Virus record (IMG/VR): IMGVR_UViG_3300021255_002694
Length of the DNA stretch: 64,000 bases
Strand: one strand, 5' to 3'
From: a virus
Taxonomy: Duplodnaviria > Caudoviricetes
This document shows, piece by piece, positions 12,213 to 64,000 of the stretch (position 1 is its first letter; each line of letters begins with the position of its first letter). The translations under genes were made by a program, and so were the position numbers. A model generated the notes under the pieces. The model did no database searches and was not told where the DNA came from. It worked only from the letters and a program-made list of their open reading frames with translations.

Positions 12213-13028
12213 ATGAGTGTTCAGCTATACAATGATGATTGTATAAACGTACTTAGAAACATGGATGGCTGTACAGTAGACTTGACAGTTACATCACCAC
12301 CGTATGATAATTTAAGAGAATATAACGGAAACATAAGTAACTGGAATTTTGATAAGTTTAAGTTGGTTGCCAATGAACTTTATAGAGTTACGCGAAATGG
12401 CGGAGTTGTTGTCTGGATAATCTCTGATGCAACTATAGATGGAACAGAAACAGGAACTTCATTTAATCATGCTCTGTATTTTAAGAGTATTGGTTTTAAT
12501 CTACATGATACAATGATCTGGCACAAACCAAATCCAATGCCGAGAGATACAAGAATACCTAGATACTGGCAGTCGTTTGAGTACATGTTTATATTGTCAA
12601 AAGGCAAACCTGATCATTTTACATTTCTAATGGAAGATTCAAAACATGCCGGAAAATCATCTGTATTTCATCAAAGAAATCCAGACGGTAGCATGAGAGA
12701 TGATAGGAAAATAGTTACATCTAATAATGTGTGCAAGGAAAAGAAGCCACTTGGAAATGTTTGGTCTATAAACACAATAGCGTCAAATAGCGAGAAAACA
12801 GGGCATCCTGCACAATTTCCGGTACAACTAGCGCAAGATCATGTTGTATCTTGGTCTTATGAAAATGATGTTGTTTTGGATTGTTTTATGGGTTCTGGAA
12901 CAACAGGTGTTGCTTGTGTAAAAACAAAAAGAAATTTCATTGGAATTGAACTAGATGAATCATATTTTAATATAGCAAAGGATAGAATATGTCAAGAGGA
13001 AAAACAGCTAAAGTCAAAATTATTTTGA
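12213..13028 (+). CDS. beta-class (SPPY) DNA methyltransferase, paralog of 9777..10649 (ends SKLF)
   Basis: TSPPY, ETGTSF, HPAQFP, LDCFMGSGTTG. Confidence 0.9.
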   Translation: MSVQLYNDDCINVLRNMDGCTVDLTVTSPPYDNLREYNGNISNWNFDKFKLVANELYRVTRNGGVVVWIISDATIDGTETGTSFNHALYFKSIGFNLHDTMIWHKPNPMPRDTRIPRYWQSFEYMFILSKGKPDHFTFLMEDSKHAGKSSVFHQRNPDGSMRDDRKIVTSNNVCKEKKPLGNVWSINTIASNSEKTGHPAQFPVQLAQDHVVSWSYENDVVLDCFMGSGTTGVACVKTKRNFIGIELDESYFNIAKDRICQEEKQLKSKLF

Positions 13029-49650: not shown

Positions 49651-51717
49651 ATGTTCGATCTTTATGAGAAGAAAGAAACAAAGTCTAAAGCAACTAATGG
49701 TAATTTGCATAAAGCAAAAGTAAATAAAAACGATGAATTCTATACACAGCTTACAGATATTGAAAAAGAACTTATGCACTATAAAGAACATTTCAAGGAT
49801 AAGATCGTATACTGTAACTGTGATGATCCGGAGTGGAGTAATTTCTGGAAGTATTTTCACCTTAATTTTGCACACCTCGGCTTGAAGAAATTGATCGCAA
49901 CATTTTATCATATCGGAGCATCCGTATATAAAATGGAATATACTGGTGGAGATGATAATAATATTTCTGCCGGAGTTAAGATTCCTCTTACTGGAAATGG
50001 TGATTTCAGATCGGAAGAATGTGTTGAAACTTTGAAAGAGTCTGATATTGTGGTTACTAATCCACCGTTTAGCTGTTACTCTAGCGATACTGAGGTCATG
50101 ACAAATAACGGCTGGAAACTGATTAAGGATGTTGACATCTCAACTGATTTAATTATGTCTCTGAATCCAGATACACATGAAATTGAATTTGTAAAAGCAG
50201 TTGACTTTATAACAAGCCCTGTAAATGGAGAACTTTATCACTATCAGTCAAGAAACATGGATTTCTGTGTTACTGGAAATCATAATATGTATGCTTATTA
50301 TAAAGATTGTCATGATGTTCCTAGAAGCATTCCTCTTGTAGAAGCTAGTTCCGTCAAGAAATCTTACATGCTTCCCATTACTGGCTTTTCATGGAGTGGT
50401 AACGATCAGGAATATTTTGTATTGCCAGAAACAAAGCAACTTGAACAATATACAAGAAAAGAAATCACTGTTCCGGAAAAGATGATCCCGATGGAAGATT
50501 GGCTTGAATTTTTCGGATTTTATCTTGCAGATGGATGTTATAGAGATCATATAAATTCACTCGGAAAAAGAGACTATACAATTTCAATTAAGCAAAATGT
50601 AAGCAATGAAGATTACGTGATTGATCTTATCCGGAGAATTGGATTTGATGCAAGAATCAGTGCAGGAAGTTCTGATTCCAATAAGAATTATAGTATCTAC
50701 TCAAAACAGCTTTGGGAATACTTGATGCAGTTTGGAAGAAGCCAGGATAAATATATTCCAAGAGAATTTCTCGATCTTGATGTAAAGTATCTCAAAGCAC
50801 TGTATAAAGGGTATACAAATGGCGATAGTTCTTTGTGTGCAGACGGTCATATTCACTTTTCAACTGTATCTGAAAAATTGATTTCAAACATTCAGGAACT
50901 TATCTTGAAAATTTTTGGACGCATTACACAAGTTAGAAAGTCTGTGCGTAAACACTCCTATGATGATAATTATGGAACATGTTACAGTATTAACGTAAAA
51001 CTAGATAAAAATAGAGATAACTTTAGTAAATATGTAACACCAAAAATGATTCCATATAATGACAATGTGTACTGTCTTACACTTGAAAAGAATCATATTA
51101 TGCTTGTTAGACATAATGGTATTATCGGGTGGTGTGGAAACTGTTTTAGAGATTATGTTGCACAGTTGATGAAGTATGAGAAGAAGTTTCTGATTATTGG
51201 AAATGTGAGTGCAATCACATATAAAGAGTTCTTCCCTTTAATTAAAAATGGAATGGTGTGGATTGGTCAATCAATTCACTCTGGAGATAGAAAATTTTAT
51301 GTTCCAGACTCGTATCCATTAAATGCATCTGGTTGTGGAATTGATGAAAATGGAAAAAGATACATACGAGTTAAGGGTGTTCGTTGGTACACTAATATGG
51401 ATTATGCTAAAAGGCACGAAAAACTTGTATTGTATAAAAAGTATGATTCGCAACATTACAGTAAATATGATAATTATGATGCAATCAACGTAGATAAGGT
51501 TATAGATATTCCTGTTGACTATGACGGAGTTATGGGTGTTCCTATCACTTTTTTGGATAAATACTGTCCTGAACAATTTGACATAGTGGATATAAACCCA
51601 CACTTTTTTAGCATTATTGAGCAGGGGCTACCTAAACCGAAGCAGCTAACTTTGCATAGTGTAGGAAAAAAAGATCCTTATGCCCGTATTCTTATACGCA
51701 AGAAAGTAGGTGCTTGA
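49651..51717 (+). CDS. EcoRI-family adenine-specific DNA methyltransferase, intein-containing
   Basis: NLHKAK..KNDEFYT, VYCNCDDP, GNGDFRS.EC, IVVTNPPFS|intein|CFRDY..QL, KFLIIGN, YDNYDAINV, MGVPITFLDKY. Confidence 0.9.
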   Translation: MFDLYEKKETKSKATNGNLHKAKVNKNDEFYTQLTDIEKELMHYKEHFKDKIVYCNCDDPEWSNFWKYFHLNFAHLGLKKLIATFYHIGASVYKMEYTGGDDNNISAGVKIPLTGNGDFRSEECVETLKESDIVVTNPPFSCYSSDTEVMTNNGWKLIKDVDISTDLIMSLNPDTHEIEFVKAVDFITSPVNGELYHYQSRNMDFCVTGNHNMYAYYKDCHDVPRSIPLVEASSVKKSYMLPITGFSWSGNDQEYFVLPETKQLEQYTRKEITVPEKMIPMEDWLEFFGFYLADGCYRDHINSLGKRDYTISIKQNVSNEDYVIDLIRRIGFDARISAGSSDSNKNYSIYSKQLWEYLMQFGRSQDKYIPREFLDLDVKYLKALYKGYTNGDSSLCADGHIHFSTVSEKLISNIQELILKIFGRITQVRKSVRKHSYDDNYGTCYSINVKLDKNRDNFSKYVTPKMIPYNDNVYCLTLEKNHIMLVRHNGIIGWCGNCFRDYVAQLMKYEKKFLIIGNVSAITYKEFFPLIKNGMVWIGQSIHSGDRKFYVPDSYPLNASGCGIDENGKRYIRVKGVRWYTNMDYAKRHEKLVLYKKYDSQHYSKYDNYDAINVDKVIDIPVDYDGVMGVPITFLDKYCPEQFDIVDINPHFFSIIEQGLPKPKQLTLHSVGKKDPYARILIRKKVGA
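50074..51141 (+). mobile_element. intein with LAGLIDADG homing endonuclease (356 aa)
   Basis: Block A CYSSDTEVMTNNGWK; block B VTGNH; FFGFYLADG and LYKGYTNGD blocks; C-terminal VYCLT..NH.MLVRHNG..GWCGN followed by Cys+1. Confidence 0.9.
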
Positions 51718-52915: not shown

Positions 52916-54466
52916 ATGACATATAATCTAATTGATGAACCTTGGATTAAGGTGAAATACCTTGACGGAACAACTACAGAAGTTGGAATTAGAAAATGTT
53001 TTGAAGATGCTGAAATCATTGATGATATTCTTGCTCCTAGTTTTCGCAGAGATACAATGCATATTTATTATATTCCAACACTAAGACTTCTAACAACTAT
53101 TGTTATGGCTGCGTATTTCAAGCCGGAACAGGACTTCACATCAAGAAATTTCAAGTATTTGCGTAAATTTGAAACCGGAATTTATACAGATGTTATTAAA
53201 GAATATCTTGATAAATTCCATGATCGGTTTGATGTTCTTTCTGTCGATTATCCTTTCTTGCAGAATAAAGACATTCTTGGAAAAGTTGAAGAAAACAAAA
53301 ACTGTGTTACATGGAACCCATTTATTCCGAGTGCGAATAACAAAGTTTTTGGTAAAAACAGATCACAAGATATGCAAGCAAATGATATTCTATCTCAATA
53401 TGAAATGACCGTAAAAGAATATGTATACTATCTTCTTTACACAGCAGTCATGGGTGTATATCCGTCAACGAAAGTTTCAAAGGAGACTGCACTTGAAGCA
53501 AAAGCAATGATTTATATTTCACTGAAAGGTAAAAATCTTTTGCAGACAATTTGTAATAATGTTTTCAAACTTAATAAAAGCAATGATTCAGACAATGATT
53601 ATGACAGACCTATTTGGGAACTTGAAAGAGTTGCAGATGTAGAAACATTGTTTCCTGTTAATTGTGATATACCTAGACAGAACAATAAGCTGATCTGTAG
53701 TTTCTATCCTGGCATCTCAATAATGAACACCGGAGCATCTGGATCAATGATTTCTGGATTTGTTAGAACAGGAACAGAAACGCTTGAAAACACAACAATC
53801 AATCAGGATGAGACAGCGGCTCTAGCTGATCCAAACGTATATTGTTGTGATTCTGCTGTATCAAAATCAGACAAAGACGGTAATAAGTCATATAAGGAAT
53901 TTAGTATTGATTCTGGTTTCGCAAGTTCAATCTGTATCGCGGCAACATCTCACATTGGAGATAACATGGCTTGCAATATCCTGAGTAATAACCGAGATTT
54001 TTCAGATTGTTCAGTAAGAATCTTTTTCAGAATGTTCGATGGCATGAAAGTTAGTCTTTTTCAATGTGGTGAAATTTCTGGAAATAATGCTAAGACATGG
54101 GAAATTTTACAGAATACTGATAAACATAACATAGCAGTTAAGTATAGCGAAACATATTATAAGATTAGAAAATGCTTAACAGGCTGTATTGCTGATATGT
54201 TCTCAGGAAAGAAAGTATCAGACAGTTTTATTAAAAAAGCTGTCAAGAATTTTTCTGATTTCATGGAACATGATTTCTTCAATGATTTCACAGTTGATCT
54301 TATAGAAGATGCAGAGAATGCTATTTATAAATTTGTTGAAAGATCGAGTGATGTTACGAAACAGATAGTCTCTGAAATTGTATGTTTCTCGGATAACATG
54401 ATCGGAAGTGCTAACGCTGTTTCAAAATTTAATAAGAACATGAAAAAATTGATTGAGGGGTGTTAA
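52916..54466 (+). CDS. cas8e: type I-E Cascade large subunit Cas8e/Cse1
   Basis: N-terminal YNLIDEPWIKV, FDV...PFLQ, GKNLLQTI..N, RPIWE; first gene of the cas operon. Confidence 0.85.
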   Translation: MTYNLIDEPWIKVKYLDGTTTEVGIRKCFEDAEIIDDILAPSFRRDTMHIYYIPTLRLLTTIVMAAYFKPEQDFTSRNFKYLRKFETGIYTDVIKEYLDKFHDRFDVLSVDYPFLQNKDILGKVEENKNCVTWNPFIPSANNKVFGKNRSQDMQANDILSQYEMTVKEYVYYLLYTAVMGVYPSTKVSKETALEAKAMIYISLKGKNLLQTICNNVFKLNKSNDSDNDYDRPIWELERVADVETLFPVNCDIPRQNNKLICSFYPGISIMNTGASGSMISGFVRTGTETLENTTINQDETAALADPNVYCCDSAVSKSDKDGNKSYKEFSIDSGFASSICIAATSHIGDNMACNILSNNRDFSDCSVRIFFRMFDGMKVSLFQCGEISGNNAKTWEILQNTDKHNIAVKYSETYYKIRKCLTGCIADMFSGKKVSDSFIKKAVKNFSDFMEHDFFNDFTVDLIEDAENAIYKFVERSSDVTKQIVSEIVCFSDNMIGSANAVSKFNKNMKKLIEGC

Positions 54467-54467
54467 T

Positions 54468-54995
54468 ATGAGTACAAGTTCCGAGTTTGTTAAAAGTCTA
54501 TGGGCTAATCTATATGCTAAGTCTGGAAGCATCTATTGCTTGAAACGCGCATTTGGAAACTCTGTGAGCAGTTCCGATATCAACACATATATGTCTTTTT
54601 TAGATGTGTCAGGTAACACTTTTCCGGATAAACAGAAAGAGGTATACTTCCTTGTAGCAACAATGTTCTACAACTTTGAAAGACCTAATCAGGCAGAGAA
54701 AGATAACAGAACATTTGTGACATTCGAGAGACTTATTTCAAGAATCTACGGTAAGTCTAAATCTACAGACAAGATGATCCGGAATTTCATTGACAGTGAT
54801 TTTGACTCAAACGGTATTTTTGTCAATAGACTTGTAAGGCTGTCTAACAGATGTAAAAAAGAACTTCACAGCGGAGAGCATCTTGATTTCAACTCACTGA
54901 TCAATGATCTTGTTAGATGGAATGACGAATCCAAGTCTGTTAAGTTTAAGTGGGCATCTCAGATTGTGTCAAAATACACAAAAAATGACAAGTAA
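54468..54995 (+). CDS. cse2: type I-E small subunit Cas11/Cse2
   Basis: Position and size; LKRAFG, YFLVATMF, LDFNSLINDLVRW....VKFKWA. Confidence 0.78.
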   Translation: MSTSSEFVKSLWANLYAKSGSIYCLKRAFGNSVSSSDINTYMSFLDVSGNTFPDKQKEVYFLVATMFYNFERPNQAEKDNRTFVTFERLISRIYGKSKSTDKMIRNFIDSDFDSNGIFVNRLVRLSNRCKKELHSGEHLDFNSLINDLVRWNDESKSVKFKWASQIVSKYTKNDK

Positions 54996-55023
54996 CATTG
55001 TGACACTTTATATTCAAAAACAC

Positions 55024-55061
55024 TTGACAGGATATAATATTTATAGTATACTATATTTACA
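55024..55061 (+). promoter_or_regulatory. phage early promoter inside the cas operon, upstream of cas7
   Basis: TTGACA-17-TATACT-ATATTTACA, same consensus as the other early promoters. Confidence 0.85.
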
Positions 55062-55103: not shown

Positions 55104-56321
55104 ATGGGAAAATTCGTAAGTCTGTCTATGTTGAAGAATTATTCTCCATCACTTGTGAACAGAGATGATTCCGGTGATGCAAAACAGGTTGTTGTTGGTG
55201 GAGTAAACCGTGCTAGAATTTCAAGCCAATGCTTGAAGAGGGCTGTGCGAGAGGAAATCGGAAACAGAGGTATTACAACCGCACATCTTGAAGACCTTGT
55301 TGAGCAGATTCTTTCCGATGAGTGTGTAAAAGGAACTATCTCTGAATCTGATATTGAAACTATTGGAAAAGCCGTTTGCTGTGAAGATGTACTCAACTGT
55401 GATTGGTCTAAGAGAGCATCAAAGACTGGTGAGAAGAAAGATGATGACGGAAAAGGCAGAACAGTCAATCAGGTTAATATGGTTGAGATCGGAACTGTAA
55501 TTAGGGTTGCAATCGAAAACAAGGACGCAAATCAGAAGGAACTTGTTAAAGCGATTAGAAATGCTCTTAATGATGTAAGAATTTCTGTAGATAAAGCAAT
55601 GTTTGGAACAATGGCAACATCCGGTTTGATTGAGACTGTTGATGGTGCTGTTCAGGTTGCACAGACATTCAGCATTGATGAGTACATCCCCGAAGATGAT
55701 TTTATCGTAGCAAAATTCTCTGCTGAAAATACAGATGACTTTGATCCGTTTTTCGGTAGTTACAAGAAATTTGAGAATGACAACATGAGAAAAACAGGAA
55801 GTGAAACACTTGCAAGTTCATGTCTGCACTCTAACACAATGCTTACATGCACATCCGTGAATGTTACAGAACTTAAAAGAAATCTATCTAGCAGTATTCA
55901 GCATACAGCGATTGATGTTGAAAATATTGATTCTGATGTTGCAAAAAGTGTATGTGACTATATCGAAACTGTAATCACAGCAGAACCGTCCGCAAAACAG
56001 AATGCCATGTCTGCACACTCTGTTCCGGCAGTTGTATATATTGAAGTTATTGAAGATGGTGCTGTTAAGTATCCGCAAGGTTCTTTTGAAAAGATCGTAA
56101 GGAGAACGGAATCCGATTCTGTATCTGAAATCGGAATTAAGCGAATTTCAGAATTTGCTGCCGATGATACTTTCAGAACAGGTAACATTAAGAAGTATGT
56201 CATGCTTTCTGCACCGTATAAGCGTCTTGAAGATATGTTTACAGATTCCGGAGTTACTGTAATTAAGAATCTAAGTAATCTTAGAGAAATTCTTGGTTCG
56301 GATATTCTTGGCATGATTTAA
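55104..56321 (+). CDS. cas7: type I-E Cas7/Cse4
   Basis: PSLVNRDDSGDAK..VGGVNRARISSQCLKRAVR, VDKAMFG.M, VDGAVQVAQ, KQNAMSAH. Confidence 0.92.
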   Translation: MGKFVSLSMLKNYSPSLVNRDDSGDAKQVVVGGVNRARISSQCLKRAVREEIGNRGITTAHLEDLVEQILSDECVKGTISESDIETIGKAVCCEDVLNCDWSKRASKTGEKKDDDGKGRTVNQVNMVEIGTVIRVAIENKDANQKELVKAIRNALNDVRISVDKAMFGTMATSGLIETVDGAVQVAQTFSIDEYIPEDDFIVAKFSAENTDDFDPFFGSYKKFENDNMRKTGSETLASSCLHSNTMLTCTSVNVTELKRNLSSSIQHTAIDVENIDSDVAKSVCDYIETVITAEPSAKQNAMSAHSVPAVVYIEVIEDGAVKYPQGSFEKIVRRTESDSVSEIGIKRISEFAADDTFRTGNIKKYVMLSAPYKRLEDMFTDSGVTVIKNLSNLREILGSDILGMI

Positions 56322-56392: not shown

Positions 56393-57148
56393 CTTTTTCC
56401 CACGCACATGGGGGTTATCCTATGCAGGTTTCCATGCACCTGATTTTCTTCCACTTTTTCCCACGCACATGGGGGTTATCCTCAAGCAAAAGGTCCTGAT
56501 TACTTTGAAGATATCTTTTTCCCACGCACATGGGGGTTATCCTGCCATCTTACTGGTTTCATAAAATCAAATCCTCTTTTTCCCACGCACATGGGGGTTA
56601 TCCCATCTTTCAATTCCTCCTCTGGAATTAGTTTGACTTTTTCCCACTCACACGGGGGTTATCTCAAAATCAAGATATTCCTGCTGCTGCAATTCGGATT
56701 TTTCCAACTCATACGGGTGGTTATCCTTTTCCAGTGATCGGATCAAAACCATCCTTTAACTTTTTCCTACTTTCGTGGAGTTATCCCTATTACAGGACTT
56801 GCACAATCAATACCTGAACCTTTTTCCACTCGCGTGGTGGTTATCCGCATTCGAGTCTTTCAGTCTGTGTTCCAGTACAGCTTTTCCCACCTGCATGGGG
56901 GTTATCCTTACTAGAAGAATTCCTTTCATAATATGTCTCATTTTCCCACTCGAATTGGGTTATCCAGATATTCCACAGGTATTGGTCCAAATCCAAGTCT
57001 TTTTCTCCACACACATGGGGTTATCCTTGATTTGTCAGAGTTCCTGGTGTACAAGCACACTTTTTCCCATGCAAGTTGGGGGTTATCCTACTCTGCTGTT
57101 TTGATAATTGCATCCGTTGTCCTTTTCCCGTGCAAACGGGGGTTATCC
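56393..57148 (+). CRISPR. type I-E CRISPR array 1: 13 repeats, 12 spacers of about 33 nt
   Basis: Repeat CTTTTTCCCACGCACATGGGGGTTATCC; copies 1-4 identical (56393, 56454, 56515, 56576), later copies divergent; about 61-bp period. Confidence 0.95.
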
Positions 57149-57170
57149 TTAAAAGAGAGGGGTTTACTTT

Positions 57171-58248: not shown

Positions 58249-60981
58249 GTGAAAAAATCTTGGTGTGTACTTGCATATGTGAATCCAACAAATGAAGTAA
58301 GAGGAAAAACAAGAAGATACCTCTATGAGGTCAAGCCAAATGTGTTTGTCGGTACTGTATCTACTTTAGTCAGAGAAACACTCTGGAATAAGATTAAAGA
58401 AACAAATACACTTGCTTCTATTATCTATTCAGCTAATACTGAACAGGGATTTAAGTCTGAAAGTACATACGGAGATGCAATGTTTTCGGATTTCGATGGA
58501 GTTATTCTTCCGACTTTTGAAAAAAGCATTCTGTCTGTAAAAGACATTTATGCAAAATCTGACGGCAAGAAACTGATTGATCATCTATTTGAAGCCGGAT
58601 ATATTGCACATGCACTTCTTACATATGGTAGAGGAAAGAATGCGATTCAACACATTGCAAAGTTGCTCAATGTAGATGTAGATAAACTAATTGATCTTAC
58701 TTGTTTTCTTATTGGAACGCATGATATCGGTAAAGCACATCCAACTTTTCAATTAAATCTAAATGATTCCAATACGTGCTGTGATGAAATTCATGACACA
58801 GTAATTAAACTCTTTCTCAGTGGATCATTCGATGTTACCGATAGCGGAGAAATGCGACATGAAAGATATTCAAGAGATATTTTATATGACTATTTTAATG
58901 ATCTTGGATTAGATGAATATTCATATGAATACCTTGCAGATATTATTGCATTTCACCATCAAGGCAAACTTGGAGATGCCGAAGAACTGACTGTATGTTA
59001 TGGATCAGAGACAGAAGATCGCTGGAAAGAGTGGAGAAATGTTCAGAGGCAGATGATTGAAAAAGTGCGATCAATCTGGAATATTGACACAGACTTCATC
59101 AAAAGCCTTGAGGATAAAAAATATACAAACGGTCTTTGTTACTTTATTCTTTCTGTAATGGTAACATCTGATTGGATTGTATCTGGAAAACATTTTGTGC
59201 AAACACTCAGTAATTGTAAAGGTGATATTGAAAAAGCCGCAAAAAGTTTTATCTGTACAAATCATTTAGATTGTTCTTCTATCAAGGATTCTTTGAAAAA
59301 TATATCTTGGGGTTCAGTATTTTCATTTGATAAGAATGCACTACAGACTTTTGTAACATCTGAAAAAGTTTCAGTAGATACTGATGAATGTCCGATGTAT
59401 GTTATCGAATATCCATGTGGCTATGGAAAGACCGAAGCCGCTCTTGCACTTGCGTTAAAAATCGGCGCAGATAAGAGTGGAATTTATCTCGCTGCACCTA
59501 CAATGTCTACAGCAAAAGGTCTTGCTAATAGATGCCGAGATATTGCAAAAAATGCCGGAATTGAAATGAACATTCCAGAGTTCGACAGCAGTATGATCTG
59601 GGAAGATAATGAGATGGAGAAAATTCCAAGAGAACTGTGGACGAGTAAGACAAGACATCAAATGCTTTATCCATTTGCTGTAGGAACTATTGACCAAGTT
59701 CTTAAATCTGTGATCAAGTATAGGTACTCATGTATCGGTATGCTCGGACTTTCAGATAAGGTCGTTATTATTGATGAAGTTCATGCCTATGATGCTTATA
59801 TGCTGACAGAACTTAAAACGCTGATTAGGTGGTGTAAGTTTCTAGGAGTTCCGATTATTCTTCTGTCTGCAACACTTCCAACTGAAACAAAACAGCAGTT
59901 GTTCTCTGCATCTGGAATAGCGACAGACATTAAAGAGTACAGCAATGAGTATCCACTTATCACATATGCATATAATGGAAAACTTATTCAGGAGCATATT
60001 GATTGTGTTGGAAAAGATGTGAACATTAAAACAGTTGAATCGAATGATATCATTGTGTCAATGCTGAATTCAGCAATGTCTGTTGAATCTGGATGTATTG
60101 CACTTATTGCACCGACAGTTGATGATGCTTTTGCACTGTATGATATGTTGAATGAAGAAGTGACTGATTGTGATGTTATTCTGTATCATGGAAGAATGTC
60201 AGTTTCGGATAAATCTGATAAGGTAAAAGAATTACTAAGACTTTTTGGAAAAGATAGATCAAATAGACCGAAGAAAGCCATTGTTGTTGCGACATCTATC
60301 ATCGAACAATCTCTTGATGTTGATTTTGACTATATGTTCACTGCGCTTGCTCCTATTGATCTTCTTATTCAAAGACTCGGCAGAGTTCACAGACATTCGG
60401 ATAAGGGAACTATTAGAGAGTTTACAAAAATCGACAGTCCTTTTACAGTAGTTATTCCAAGATCATATGATAATCTTGCAAGAATTTATGATTCGGAAAT
60501 TCTAAATAGAACTAAAACAGAACTATCTAAGATTAAAAAATTGAATACCGTTGATGACGTTCGGAGTATTATTGACAGTGCATATAATGGCTATTCTCCA
60601 CAGAGAGATAATATTTCTAGGATCAGAGCAAATTCTGTAACTTTGAATGATCCTGTAAAAAGAGATGCCATTGAAACATCTCCTGAAAATTATAGATCAT
60701 TCGATCCGGTTCTTCCAATAACAAGAGAAGAAAGATATCCTACAACTGATGTAATCATCATTCGTGAAATCAAAGATGAATATAGTTTTGCAGAAATTCG
60801 TGATATCATGTTGAATAACTGTATTAGCGTTGCTTCATACAAACTTAATCCGTTCCATGAACTTGCAATTACGGATTTTGAATTTTTTAGAGATGCAGAA
60901 ATATATGTCAGCGATAGCATGTTCATCACTTCCGGAGAGCATATTATGACACTTACAGGAGATGGGTTGAGGATTGAATGA
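58249..60981 (+). CDS. cas3: Cas2(I-E)-Cas3 fusion (HD nuclease + SF2 helicase)
   Basis: First about 90 aa are I-E Cas2 (RGKTRRYLYEVKPNVFVGTVSTLVRETLW, NTEQGF, DFDGVIL); then YAKS..L.DH, HDIGKA, RHE, FHHQG, SDWI.S; PCGYGKTEAAL, IIDEVHAYD, LLSATLP, EQSLDVDFD, QRLGRVHRH. Confidence 0.92.
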   Translation: MKKSWCVLAYVNPTNEVRGKTRRYLYEVKPNVFVGTVSTLVRETLWNKIKETNTLASIIYSANTEQGFKSESTYGDAMFSDFDGVILPTFEKSILSVKDIYAKSDGKKLIDHLFEAGYIAHALLTYGRGKNAIQHIAKLLNVDVDKLIDLTCFLIGTHDIGKAHPTFQLNLNDSNTCCDEIHDTVIKLFLSGSFDVTDSGEMRHERYSRDILYDYFNDLGLDEYSYEYLADIIAFHHQGKLGDAEELTVCYGSETEDRWKEWRNVQRQMIEKVRSIWNIDTDFIKSLEDKKYTNGLCYFILSVMVTSDWIVSGKHFVQTLSNCKGDIEKAAKSFICTNHLDCSSIKDSLKNISWGSVFSFDKNALQTFVTSEKVSVDTDECPMYVIEYPCGYGKTEAALALALKIGADKSGIYLAAPTMSTAKGLANRCRDIAKNAGIEMNIPEFDSSMIWEDNEMEKIPRELWTSKTRHQMLYPFAVGTIDQVLKSVIKYRYSCIGMLGLSDKVVIIDEVHAYDAYMLTELKTLIRWCKFLGVPIILLSATLPTETKQQLFSASGIATDIKEYSNEYPLITYAYNGKLIQEHIDCVGKDVNIKTVESNDIIVSMLNSAMSVESGCIALIAPTVDDAFALYDMLNEEVTDCDVILYHGRMSVSDKSDKVKELLRLFGKDRSNRPKKAIVVATSIIEQSLDVDFDYMFTALAPIDLLIQRLGRVHRHSDKGTIREFTKIDSPFTVVIPRSYDNLARIYDSEILNRTKTELSKIKKLNTVDDVRSIIDSAYNGYSPQRDNISRIRANSVTLNDPVKRDAIETSPENYRSFDPVLPITREERYPTTDVIIIREIKDEYSFAEIRDIMLNNCISVASYKLNPFHELAITDFEFFRDAEIYVSDSMFITSGEHIMTLTGDGLRIE

Positions 60982-60982
60982 T

Positions 60983-61942
60983 GCTTTTCCTCACTTCACG
61001 GGGGTTATCCTACTGCCGCAACCTTGACTACAAGTTCAATGCACTTTTCCACACTGCATGTGGGTTATCCTATTAAGTTGCAAGTCAAGGAATTGAATTA
61101 CGTCTTTTTCCAACACACGGTGGTTATCCACCATGAGAACGATCCTGCGATACAGCGGTTGACTTTTCAAACGCACACGATGTGGGGGGGGGTATCCAAA
61201 ATCATGCACTGATCGAGTCAAACGGACATACCTTTTCCAACGCACACATGGGGGTTATCCTGGCTACCCTGTAAAATTACACTACTTTCAAATCTTTTCC
61301 CCATACATAGGGGGTTATCCTCTGCCAGTCGTGTCGTTTTCATACTCGTTTCAGTCTTTTCCATACATATTGGGGTTATCCAAAGTATTTATTGCTGTTG
61401 ACAAAAGAGCAAATCTTTTTCCACTTATATGGTGGTTATCCTGCCGAAGCTGGCAATGCACTAGGAAAAGGTCACTTTTCCCATTACACTGGGGTTATCC
61501 GTTGTCATTGTGATCTCTTGACCAAATCTATACTTTCCCATACACACATGGGTTATCCTGACATTACAGATAAGACAATGATTACTGCAATCTTTTTCTC
61601 ACACATACGAGTGGGGGTTATCCTGAAAGAATGGATATAAATGGGCAGAACGACAGTCCCACCCCCCCCAATACACATTGGGGGAGGGGGCTTATCCATT
61701 GTTTACTGATAGCGCAGTTTGAACTAATGACTTTTCACGTATACATGTGGGAGTTATCCTTCATTACAAAGTTCGTATGAGTTTGACTTAAACTTTTCCA
61801 CACACATAGGGGTGGTTATCCTCGATATTCGGTTTAGATATCAACCGATCAAGCATTTTCCCCATATACACGGGGGTTATCCGGAGATTGCCGATATTTA
61901 CATTGAAGCAACAAACTTTTCCCAATCACACAGGGGTTATAA
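60983..61942 (+). CRISPR. type I-E CRISPR array 2: 16 degenerate repeats, 15 spacers
   Basis: CTTTT(T)CC...GG(T)TATCC units at about 60-bp period, starting immediately after the cas3 stop; every repeat differs. Confidence 0.9.
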
Positions 61943-61976
61943 TTATTACAATTTGGTTACAGATGTAAATAGACCA

Positions 61977-62283: not shown

Positions 62284-64000
62284 ATGAAAATATCGTTGAA
62301 CAATTTGCTTTTATCAGAACTCCGTGCATTTCCTGTAACCATGATTCCAGATAATGACGTTACAGATTCAACTCTAACAGCCGCGATTACTGCAAATGAA
62401 GAATTACTTAATCTAGGCTATACTTTATCAGCAGAAGATGTTGTTAATCTTGCAAAGTGTGGTGAACTGTATTCATTTGTAGAGATGTTCAAAGATGCTC
62501 TCTCGGATGTAAAAGCAAAACCAATGTATCCAAATTTCCCGAATCAAGTTATGGATATGGATGAAGCAACATTCAGATTTCATCAGATGATGCATTATTT
62601 TTCAACATATGGTGCAGAACTGTTTTTCGGTCTAAATGTATCTAAAGGATGGCTACCGAATGTAGAAGATACTCCTAAGATCAATGATGATAATACTTTG
62701 CTAAAAGCAAAGGTAATTACTCTTATTGATTCATATGACATTCCAGAATACGTTTATTCAAGAATTATGTCTAAATGCGAGAGATTGACAGATAAGGATC
62801 AGATGCTCCTTGACTATGTTCTTCCGAACATTGATGCAAGCACTATAAAGAGTGTTCAAATTCCGTTTAAGGAAAATATCATGCCTGTATTTTACAGTAT
62901 TGTCAATTCAACTGCAATTTCGCAAGAAGATAAACTTTGTTTTCTTAACTGTATTTGCAAGCATACCGGAGATGTTTTCAAGTGCATTGATTACACTCTT
63001 ACAAGATGCAAGTATCATTTCAAGACTTCTCAAAAAAGACTTTTCACAAAGTTGCTTGAAACATACAGTAACAGTGACTTTGAGGAAAATATAATTATCT
63101 CAGACAAGCGATCAAACAGAACAGAACTCTTGCTTAGATATATTGACTTTAACACATATTCACGTATTCCTGTATTCAAAACTATTGTCAATGAACTTCG
63201 ATCTGGTGAACTGCACTCTTGGATGTCTAAGGTCGAAGCAAAGTTGAAAACAAGAGATGTTGATGCTCTTAAGATGCTATCGAAAAGACCTGGCATCATG
63301 CTTAGAATGTTGACAAGACTTTTAAGACTCGGTTACAATCCTACAGATATTCTTGTATATCTGTATCCACATGCACCAGAACTTAGAACGCAGACACTTG
63401 TATCTATTCTAAACGCATTCAATGCTAAATTGGATGATCTTGAAAATAGTGATCAAAGTGAACTTAGTAGAGCAACAAGATCAGAGGTACAAAATGTGAT
63501 TACAATTTGTGCTGGATTACTTAGAGATAATCTTCACTCCAAAGATTCTCCGTTCAAAGGCAAAAGAGTTTATATTGATCACGGAGAGTACAATTTTGCA
63601 CGATCTATCATTGAAACAAACGGCAAATCTGATGAGGGCGGATATGTAAGATCAGGACTTTCATATAATATTCCAGATAATGTCAGTAGACTTAGATTCT
63701 TTGTTTACTGGAATCACAAGTATCGTGCAGATGTTGATTTGCACTCAAGACTTGTAGACTTCTGTGGCTGCACACAGGATATTGGATGGAATGCTAGTTT
63801 TAAAGAACCTGTTGCTGTATTTAGTGGAGACATTACACATTCAGATGCCGCAGAATATATTGACATTGATCTCGATGCAGCTAGAAATAACAATATCGAG
63901 TATGCAACAACATCAATTAAACTATATTCATCTGAGGATATAACAAACGGTCTTGGTGATCTTGATGAGTGTTATGTTGGATGCATGGCTGTTTCATCGC
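62284..64000 (+). CDS. large protein with C-terminal TerD-like domain (partial, runs off the window)
   Basis: GGAGGT RBS; KPMYPNFPNQVM..FHQMMHYFSTYG, KRPGIMLR.L.RLLR, RFFVYWN...DVDLHS, FSGDITHSDAAEYIDIDL; no stop seen before 64000. Confidence 0.75.
   Translation, partial: MKISLNNLLLSELRAFPVTMIPDNDVTDSTLTAAITANEELLNLGYTLSAEDVVNLAKCGELYSFVEMFKDALSDVKAKPMYPNFPNQVMDMDEATFRFHQMMHYFSTYGAELFFGLNVSKGWLPNVEDTPKINDDNTLLKAKVITLIDSYDIPEYVYSRIMSKCERLTDKDQMLLDYVLPNIDASTIKSVQIPFKENIMPVFYSIVNSTAISQEDKLCFLNCICKHTGDVFKCIDYTLTRCKYHFKTSQKRLFTKLLETYSNSDFEENIIISDKRSNRTELLLRYIDFNTYSRIPVFKTIVNELRSGELHSWMSKVEAKLKTRDVDALKMLSKRPGIMLRMLTRLLRLGYNPTDILVYLYPHAPELRTQTLVSILNAFNAKLDDLENSDQSELSRATRSEVQNVITICAGLLRDNLHSKDSPFKGKRVYIDHGEYNFARSIIETNGKSDEGGYVRSGLSYNIPDNVSRLRFFVYWNHKYRADVDLHSRLVDFCGCTQDIGWNASFKEPVAVFSGDITHSDAAEYIDIDLDAARNNNIEYATTSIKLYSSEDITNGLGDLDECYVGCMAVSS

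Follow-up and report, generated by a model that had tools for sequence, protein, structure and literature searches.

A type I-E CRISPR-Cas locus with a Cas2-Cas3 fusion on a giant rumen phage, probably derived by deletion of a neighbouring cas1

Why does a phage-borne type I-E CRISPR-Cas locus (short palindromic repeats, clustered and regularly interspaced) carry Cas2, one half of the spacer integrase, in one chain with the interference nuclease Cas3, and where is the cas1 gene that would complete the integrase? The question was raised by a stretch of 64,000 nucleotides (nt) from a virus of the Caudoviricetes (IMG/VR record IMGVR_UViG_3300021255_002694), called the window throughout, in which the open reading frame 58249-60981 (plus strand) encodes such a fusion, here named Cas2-3. 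To our knowledge, the current classification lists a Cas2-Cas3 fusion only for type I-F. The answer that we consider probable from the comparison of related loci is that the window carries a cas1-deleted derivative of an unclassified I-E variant. In this variant Cas2e is joined to the N-terminus of Cas3e, and the domain order of the I-F Cas2/3 was reached independently. The system, borne by a jumbo phage (a giant rumen phage), would still be competent for interference.

The frame is uninterrupted and encodes 910 amino acids (aa), arranged as Cas2e domain, flexible linker, HD nuclease, DEVH helicase and C-terminal domain. It starts with GTG one base past the cas6e stop codon, preceded by the ribosome-binding site AAGGGTG. 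The initial annotation had described an I-E Cas2 running in frame into an intact HD/DEVH Cas3 and had proposed to look for the three domain families in one frame. Pfam indeed placed Cas_Cas2CT1978 (PF09707) at aa 12-87 (E 2.5e-14; 53.6 bits versus a cutoff of 24.7), Cas3_HD at aa 107-316, DEAD at aa 385-547 and Cas3-like_C_2 at aa 614-717. The top NCBIfam match was the E. coli-type Cas3 model NF007248, whose score of 238 bits lies under its equivalog cutoff of 569. The I-F model for Cas3f, TIGR02562, reached 37.7 bits versus a cutoff of 566, and TIGR01873 scored the Cas2 domain with 30.6 bits, just below the cutoff of 33.15. The helicase contains the Walker A motif GYGKT (aa 391-395), DEVH (aa 509-512) and motif VI (QRLGRVHR). 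Using an alignment of 79 homologues, these motifs and all HD metal ligands were found in invariant columns.

The AlphaFold2 model, based on the same number of homologues, had a mean predicted local distance difference test (pLDDT) value of 90.2 and a predicted template modelling (TM) score of 0.85. Its Cas2 domain showed the order beta-alpha-beta-beta-alpha-beta (strands 3-11, 26-29, 32-38 and 55-61, helices 15-22 and 39-51; pLDDT 84-93). With Foldseek, the best match for the Cas3 body was the type I-E Cas3 of Thermobifida fusca (4QQZ, TM 0.72), while I-F Cas2/3 gave TM values of 0.41-0.45. Among solved structures, the Cas2 domain was closest in sequence to E. coli Cas2 and I-E Cas2-DEDDh (E about 1e-6 to 1e-7). 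The fusion type was thus confirmed as I-E, Cas2e plus Cas3e. Since membership of Cas3f and of the Csy proteins failed in the tests, and sequence, fold and Cascade are of the I-E type, the fusion is to be regarded as convergent with that of I-F, and the independent origin suspected in the initial annotation holds.

The surrounding operon agrees with this assignment. The gene order was cse1-cse2-cas7-array A-cas5-cas6e-cas2-3, and all five I-E Cascade genes, noted before by the initial annotation, matched their Pfam families (Table 1). Cas7e, Cas5e and Cas6e were also matched by TIGR01869, TIGR01868 and TIGR01907, respectively. Two CRISPR arrays that had been left out of the annotation lie inside the operon (array A) and after cas2-3 (array B). 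Their 29-nt repeats with stem-loop and 8-nt handle and their spacers of about 32 nt are as known for I-E arrays. Every I-E feature tested was found, except a separate adaptation module of cas1e and cas2e.

How widespread is the fusion? The same architecture was present in dozens of clusters formed at 90% identity, with 36-92% identity; the contigs concerned measure up to 533 kb. When aa 1-330 served as query in an exhaustive search without profiles, about 38 clusters (50% identity level) aligned over both the Cas2 domain, from its N-terminus on, and the HD domain, the most distant with 23% identity, and all 10 clusters sampled from these were of the Cas3e type with an N-terminal Cas2e. Altogether, the same fused frame was seen in more than 70 independent clusters and one isolate genome. 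With this recurrence, and with one identical cas1-less junction in five assemblies from different samples (see below), it is exceedingly improbable that the fusion or the lack of cas1 is an artefact of assembly or gene calling, the doubt raised at the outset.

The isolate is Lachnospiraceae bacterium NK4A144, a cultured rumen bacterium. It was found by a profile search of genome contigs with a 10-sequence alignment of Cas2 and linker, and it carries Cas2-3 together with an adjacent cognate cas1. Here the order is cse1-cse2-cas7-cas5-cas6-array-cas1-cas2-3-array, with cas1 just upstream of cas2-3. The context is chromosome-like, with genes for MscS and a TPM phosphatase on both strands. The repeat, CTTTTCCCCGTGTATACGGGGGTTATCCT, is almost identical to that of the phage, and the arrays of the bacterium are homogeneous, unlike the drifting phage arrays described below. 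No spacer of NK4A144 matched the window or any of the related loci compared, so that no direct spacer link to this host was obtained. Among 401 sampled Lachnospiraceae genomes NK4A144 was the only one with the Cas2-Cas3 form. Seven of the 401 had Cas2e in frames of 291-324 aa, which by their length may be of the Cas2-DnaQ (DEDDh) form and are the commoner carriers of Cas2e in this family. The fusion is rare in the sampled bacteria and common on large phage-like contigs. Comparing the locus with GenBank phages, megablast gave no match and tblastn solely unfused Cas3 of at most 29% identity; in IMG/VR only distant relatives of the unfused kind were found. No account of an I-E fusion between Cas2 and Cas3 came up in a literature search, and databases label the proteins plainly as Cas3. 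We are therefore dealing with a real and conserved I-E variant that is apparently undescribed. Judged by its distribution, the fusion is likely to have stood at the root of a large family, with a cognate cas1 at its side.

In the window itself no cas1 was detected by tblastn with two close Cas1 queries (best E-value above 1), as stated in the initial annotation. Its place is nevertheless visible in the sister phages, which are given as L numbers. In L014 (Cas2-3 86% identical) and L008 (80%) an intact cas1 overlaps the cas2-3 stop codon (ATGA). At the same position the window has no more of cas1 than its two opening codons (ATGATG), which run straight into repeat 1 of array B, and the identical junction occurs in L003, L004, L010 and L026. 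Other relatives show other states of the gene. Truncation after codon 96 is seen in L015, whose Cas2-3 protein nevertheless equals that of L014, a phage with cas1; in L025 the cut follows approximately codon 11. The first repeat of array B marks the exact end of all three deletion types. The more distant L005 (Cas2-3 48% identical, 395-kb contig) has cas1 upstream of cse1. An AT-rich insert of about 300 nt interrupts cas1 in L011-13; in L011 (13153-13461) it lies between codons 147 and 148 and is flanked by a duplication of GGTATT. A self-splicing intron was considered for this insert and set aside, as Rfam matched it to no intron or other RNA family; it was treated as a disruption and may be a small mobile element. 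Eight further Cas2-3 clusters sit on contigs of the same size as contigs with Cas1 clusters. Sister contigs reach 326 kb, and no close Cas1 cluster was found on a contig of that largest size.

Because sister phages and NK4A144 hold a cognate cas1 beside the same fusion, the phage of the window is best described as a derivative that has in all likelihood lost cas1 recently, representing the stage "Cascade and Cas2-3, no Cas1" in the loss of the adaptation module. In the full form, Cas1 and Cas2-3 presumably constitute the spacer integrase. The lineage of the window would have suffered a clean deletion that begins at cas1 codon 3 and ends where the downstream array has its first repeat. Left in place would be Cascade, a Cas2-3 whose HD and helicase motifs are intact, and a pair of co-transcribed arrays. 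The Cas2 domain would then have been inherited with the protein rather than having evolved to recruit a foreign Cas1.

The ends of the deletions suggest how cas1 may have been removed. Exactly 31 nt before the repeat, AAC or AAT is found at the main junction and in L025, i.e., at two of the three junction types. With this spacing the retained sequence resembles a protospacer with its protospacer adjacent motif (PAM). At the main junction it ends with ATGATG as in L008-type phages and not with ATGATT as in those of the L014 type. In the proposed course, the leader end of array B would gain a spacer from the cas2-3/cas1 boundary of a sibling phage. This new spacer would then recombine with the matching sequence about 1 kb upstream, whereby cas1, leader and first repeat are removed. 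As L015 does not have the PAM, the support for a spacer-recombination origin of the deletion is no more than suggestive; a rough estimate for a chance coincidence is about 0.04.

The spacers indicate what the system may be used for. Those of the window and its relatives matched sibling phages, with a consistent 5'-AAY motif beside the protospacer. The window spacer A_04 corresponds to the cas5 3' end in L008 and L011-13, and A_07 to a GmrSD-HNH gene in L003 and L011. A spacer of L014 and L015 is one mismatch away from the GmrSD-HNH gene of the window, and an L008 spacer matches window positions 63118-63149 perfectly. The first array B spacer of L010 matches the 3' end of the cas2-3 gene of its siblings. 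The window cas5e was a striking outlier: its nt identity to the relatives is 68-74%, whereas theirs among each other is 82-93%. Together with the match of A_04 to their version of the gene, this looks like escape or avoidance of CRISPR targeting; an import by recombination would fit as well. Interference activity is deduced from the intact motifs and targeting was seen at the sequence level; on these grounds, interference between phages appears as the best-supported role. The PAM was read from at least 10 spacer-target pairs, with protospacers in L003, L008, L011 and L014. Repeats end in either T or C, and this final base may be derived from the PAM, as the terminal G is in the I-E repeat of E. 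coli; the correspondence with the PAM per spacer was mixed.

Several arrays carry spacers not shared with relatives of the same deletion type. L003 and L010 have the same deletion junction as the window, yet a different private spacer beside it in each; that of L003 matches the nrdD region of a sibling over 32/32 positions, with the PAM AAT. In the window and in L026, both cas1-less and with the same array B, array A opens with four identical repeats (CTTTTTCCCACGCACATGGGGGTTATCCT in the window, the remaining repeats being degenerate) and private spacers. The usual leader end of the window array A and its first repeat are deleted, and an old spacer, identical to the spacer L010_A_01, now adjoins the first repeat. 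The private spacers lie just downstream of this old spacer, which was turned into a pseudo-leader by the small deletion. Taken at face value, private spacers at the leader end mean that spacers were added after the loss of cas1 and that Cas1 was needed in trans. The locus is, however, a mosaic: the identity of its segments to any single relative varies between 68% and 97%, and the coding DNA beside array B is less conserved than the array itself. Recombination could consequently have joined the deletion allele to arrays grown in cas1-bearing genomes.

As further observations on the arrays, repeats and spacers drift like ordinary DNA in the window, L003, L010, L014 and L026, homologous spacers being 88-96% identical between genomes. 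Spacer turnover must therefore be slow relative to point mutation. Within one phage array most repeats differ and loop indels are frequent, with the handle GGTTATCC being kept. The spacers of array B are mostly common to L026, L003 and L010. L017 has another short array (12411-12642) downstream of its I-E locus. The repeats there measure about 35 nt (GTTTTAGACCCTTATAAAATAGCATGGGTATAAAA) and are unrelated, which hints at a second CRISPR type in phages of the L005/L017 type.

Like cas1, the Cas2 part has been lost in some lineages. Sister Cas3 proteins of about 800 aa are not primitively unfused, since their N-termini show differing in-frame or partial excisions of Cas2. P0068 begins with MRKNL joined to LINELYAKPD, compared to MRKNLTVLLL...DDLYAKPD in the fused P0033. 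P0058 retains just ...EDFDGPILQT..., and P0066 begins within the Cas2 domain. As these lineages removed Cas2 in frame and left Cas3 otherwise intact, Cas2 appears to be dispensable for a working Cas3. The phage-like locus L023, which encodes such a Cas2-deleted Cas3, had no remnant of cas1 or cas2 within 9 kb. At L023 8040-8990 about 16 virtually identical repeats stand behind an AT-rich leader, which suggests recent spacer acquisition by proteins encoded elsewhere. The opposite product also exists: in P0149 and P0152 the same Cas2 domain is joined directly to Cas1 and the Cas3 part is gone. These Cas2e::Cas1e fusions have 397-400 aa and the N-terminus known from Cas2-3. P0152 (L024 2583-3785) lies on a 4.2-kb contig away from Cascade genes and beside an ion-channel gene, and may be an adaptation-only module. 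Judged from these sequences, the family is shedding or reshuffling its adaptation module piecewise.

Some points weigh against the picture of a deletion derivative with a left-over Cas2 domain. The search for cas1 covered the 64-kb window, and a displaced gene elsewhere in the phage genome is formally conceivable, although the lack of a close Cas1 cluster at the 326-kb contig size speaks against it. The third junction type, that of L015, lacked the PAM and failed this test of the spacer-recombination model. The Cas2 domain, moreover, shows no sign of decay and is the best-conserved DNA segment of the operon. Its ratio of nonsynonymous to synonymous substitutions (dN/dS, Nei-Gojobori) was 0.02-0.15, below those of the HD domain (0.10-0.20) and the helicase (0.13-0.29), and still 0.10-0.15 at a dS of about 0.15 among three cas1-less genomes. 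A pure relic is not expected to look like this, and the domain is still under purifying selection.

One explanation for this selection is that Cas2-3 was kept to pair with a Cas1 supplied in trans, so that the arrays continue to gain spacers. Cas1 could come from a sibling phage that has the gene and infects the same cell, or from a Lachnospiraceae host whose own I-E system is compatible. The low dN/dS within the group sharing the junction would be accounted for, as would the private junction spacers of L003 and L010 and the private array A spacers of the window and L026. The near identity of the host-type repeat with the phage repeat also favours it, and a precedent is known from type IV-A3 plasmids, which use I-E adaptation proteins of the host (PMC11656645; bioRxiv 10.1101/2023.06.23.546257). 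Deletion allele and arrays may, however, differ in history owing to the recombination noted above, and since the cas1 deletion is recurrent, acquisitions could predate independent deletions. The 16 homogeneous repeats of L023 also speak against a need for Cas2 in cis, provided that this Cas2-deleted locus is acquiring. We regard such a pairing as conceivable but rather unlikely. The same doubt applies to a broader scenario, in which cas1-less jumbo phages complete their Cas2 half with the Cas1 of the host or of the very siblings they target, acquire spacers by priming or otherwise, and spare themselves cas1 as a target for rivals, the gene being lost repeatedly by recombination of a fresh cas-locus spacer with the nearby genomic copy. 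The initial annotation had proposed that the fusion recruits host Cas1 to Cas3 for primed acquisition into the phage array. Use in trans is compatible with the selection on Cas2, while an origin of the fusion for this purpose is not supported, because a cognate cas1 adjoins the fusion in relatives. The other proposal, a device against adaptation that sequesters the Cas1 of the host, was rejected; none of the findings support it, and the same fusion occurs in cas1-bearing siblings and in a bacterium in a conventional adaptation context.

Alternatively, Cas2 might be retained purely for a structural or regulatory role in Cas3, such as folding, dimerisation or control of the nuclease, without any link to Cas1. 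In type I-F the Cas2 domain dimerises Cas2/3, and Cas1 modulates the Cas2/3 nuclease. By this analogy, the low dN/dS of Cas2 without a cis-encoded cas1 would be understandable; for Cas2 dimerisation and the control of the nuclease by Cas1, work on the I-F Cas2/3 of phage ICP1 is cited (bioRxiv 10.1101/2024.03.09.584257). Against such a role, in-frame deletions of various kinds have taken Cas2, wholly or partly, out of many related Cas3 proteins that are otherwise intact, and AlphaFold2 predicted a flexible linker and no confident packing of Cas2 on Cas3. We therefore judge it unlikely. The initial annotation had taken the lack of an acidic residue after strand 1 as consistent with a purely structural role. 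This metal ligand, which is E9 in E. coli, is indeed absent (VLAYVNP), and it is present in NK4A144 (VLEFYTP). Because it is likewise missing in cas1-bearing sister phages, its absence carries no information on cas1 loss and was discarded as a sign of such a role. An acidic ligand of the E9 type is dispensable for integration by Cas2.

The positions of all features are given in Table 1. The window has 33% GC, is AT-rich, is transcribed in one direction and is rich in PHROG families and DNA methyltransferases. A strong phage promoter of the form TTGACA-N17-TATACTATATTTAC occurs in eight consensus copies (window 7361, 18697, 32353, 36220, 38841, 46594, 48503 and 55015). From the last copy, just before cas7, the cas operon may be served by an internal phage promoter. 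At 49651-51717 an EcoRI-type adenine methyltransferase of 688 aa is encoded, compared to 349-358 aa in the sister phages L003 and L011. The extra residues, about 330, matched LAGLIDADG_3 and an intein C-terminal splicing motif, and an intein appears to be inserted in the phage of the window only and not in the sisters compared.

Table 1. Positions of the features of the type I-E CRISPR-Cas locus in the window.
Feature	Position	Strand	Remarks
cse1/cas8e, large Cascade subunit	52916..54466	+	PF09481, E 4.8e-25; TIGR02547
cse2/cas11, small subunit	54453..54995	+	PF09485, E 1.7e-6
Phage promoter copy TTGACA-N17-TATACTATATTTAC directly upstream of cas7	55015..55060	+	direct-repeat families D4/D5, 6-8 copies in window
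cas7e	55104..56321	+	PF09344, E 7e-46
CRISPR array A, within operon between cas7 and cas5	56393..57149	+	12 repeats, 61-nt period
cas5e, 173 aa	57171..57692	+	PF09704, E 5.7e-21
cas6e, 191 aa	57673..58248	+	PF08798; 85% identical over full length to L003 orthologue
Cas2e domain of Cas2-3	58249..58533	+	aa 1-95; ferredoxin-like fold; PF09707
Linker between Cas2 and HD, flexible	58534..58566	+	pLDDT 57-66 across aa 71-90 versus 90 overall
Cas3 HD nuclease	58567..59196	+	PF18019; metal ligands H112, H158, D159, H204, H236, H237 and D308 intact
Cas3 superfamily 2 (SF2) helicase and C-terminal domain	59197..60981	+	PF00270, PF22590
cas1 deletion junction, GAATGATG joined to CTTTTCC	60976..60990	+	same junction in L003, L004, L010 and L026
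CRISPR array B, leaderless	60983..61943	+	16 degenerate repeats; begins two bases after cas2-3 stop

The locus thus provides a second, independent Cas2-Cas3 fusion, this time within subtype I-E, and suggests that integrase and interference nuclease have become physically coupled on more than one occasion in evolution; in I-F this coupling is presumed to underlie primed adaptation. The relatives form a natural series of stages, namely Cascade with Cas2-3 and Cas1, Cascade with Cas2-3, Cascade with Cas3, and the stand-alone Cas2::Cas1, which amounts to a natural domain-deletion experiment on the parts needed for interference. Deletions ending at the leader-repeat junction, together with spacers against the cas loci of siblings, point to a CRISPR-on-CRISPR conflict that dismantles the adaptation module. 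If Cas1 were used in trans, these phages would still adapt while being free of cas1, a gene which rival phages can target. The compact phage Cascade with Cas2-3 and the natural Cas2-less variants are ready material for biochemistry.

Comparing the locus with known systems, type IV-A3 plasmids (bioRxiv 10.1101/2023.06.23.546257) are the precedent for a system of a mobile element fed by host I-E Cas1-Cas2. Use in trans was shown experimentally there and is only inferred here, and IV-A3 carries neither Cas1 nor Cas2. Loss of adaptation genes is well known for CRISPR systems of huge phages (PMC7162821, PMC13037316, PMC11656645). The systems described by Al-Shayeb et al. (2020; PMC7162821) share the jumbo phage as carrier, the absence of cas1 and spacers against rival phages, whereas here the Cas2 half of the integrase was kept and relatives hold every stage of the loss. 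With the canonical I-E systems of E. coli K-12 and T. fusca the locus has in common the five Cascade subunits, the HD and helicase parts of Cas3e, 29-nt repeats, 32-nt spacers and a PAM located 5' of the protospacer, which is AAG in E. coli and AAY here. There, a separate Cas2 is encoded downstream of cas1; here, Cas2 is fused, an array lies inside the operon and the window is devoid of cas1. In I-E Cas2-DEDDh (DnaQ; PDB 8FYC and 8FY9), the best sequence match in the PDB (E 2.4e-7), Cas2e is also N-terminal, but its partner is a 3'-5' exonuclease trimming prespacers and not an interference nuclease-helicase. The closest counterpart in architecture is the type I-F Cas2/3 of Pseudomonas aeruginosa and of the Vibrio phage ICP1 (PDB 5B7I, 8FLJ, 8K22 and 9P11), with the same order of Cas2, linker, HD domain, SF2 helicase and C-terminal domain. 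There, too, cas1 is adjacent in the full form, and the ICP1 example is also phage-borne; Cascade, however, consists of Csy1-4 in type I-F and of Cse1, Cse2, Cas7e, Cas5e and Cas6e in the system described here.

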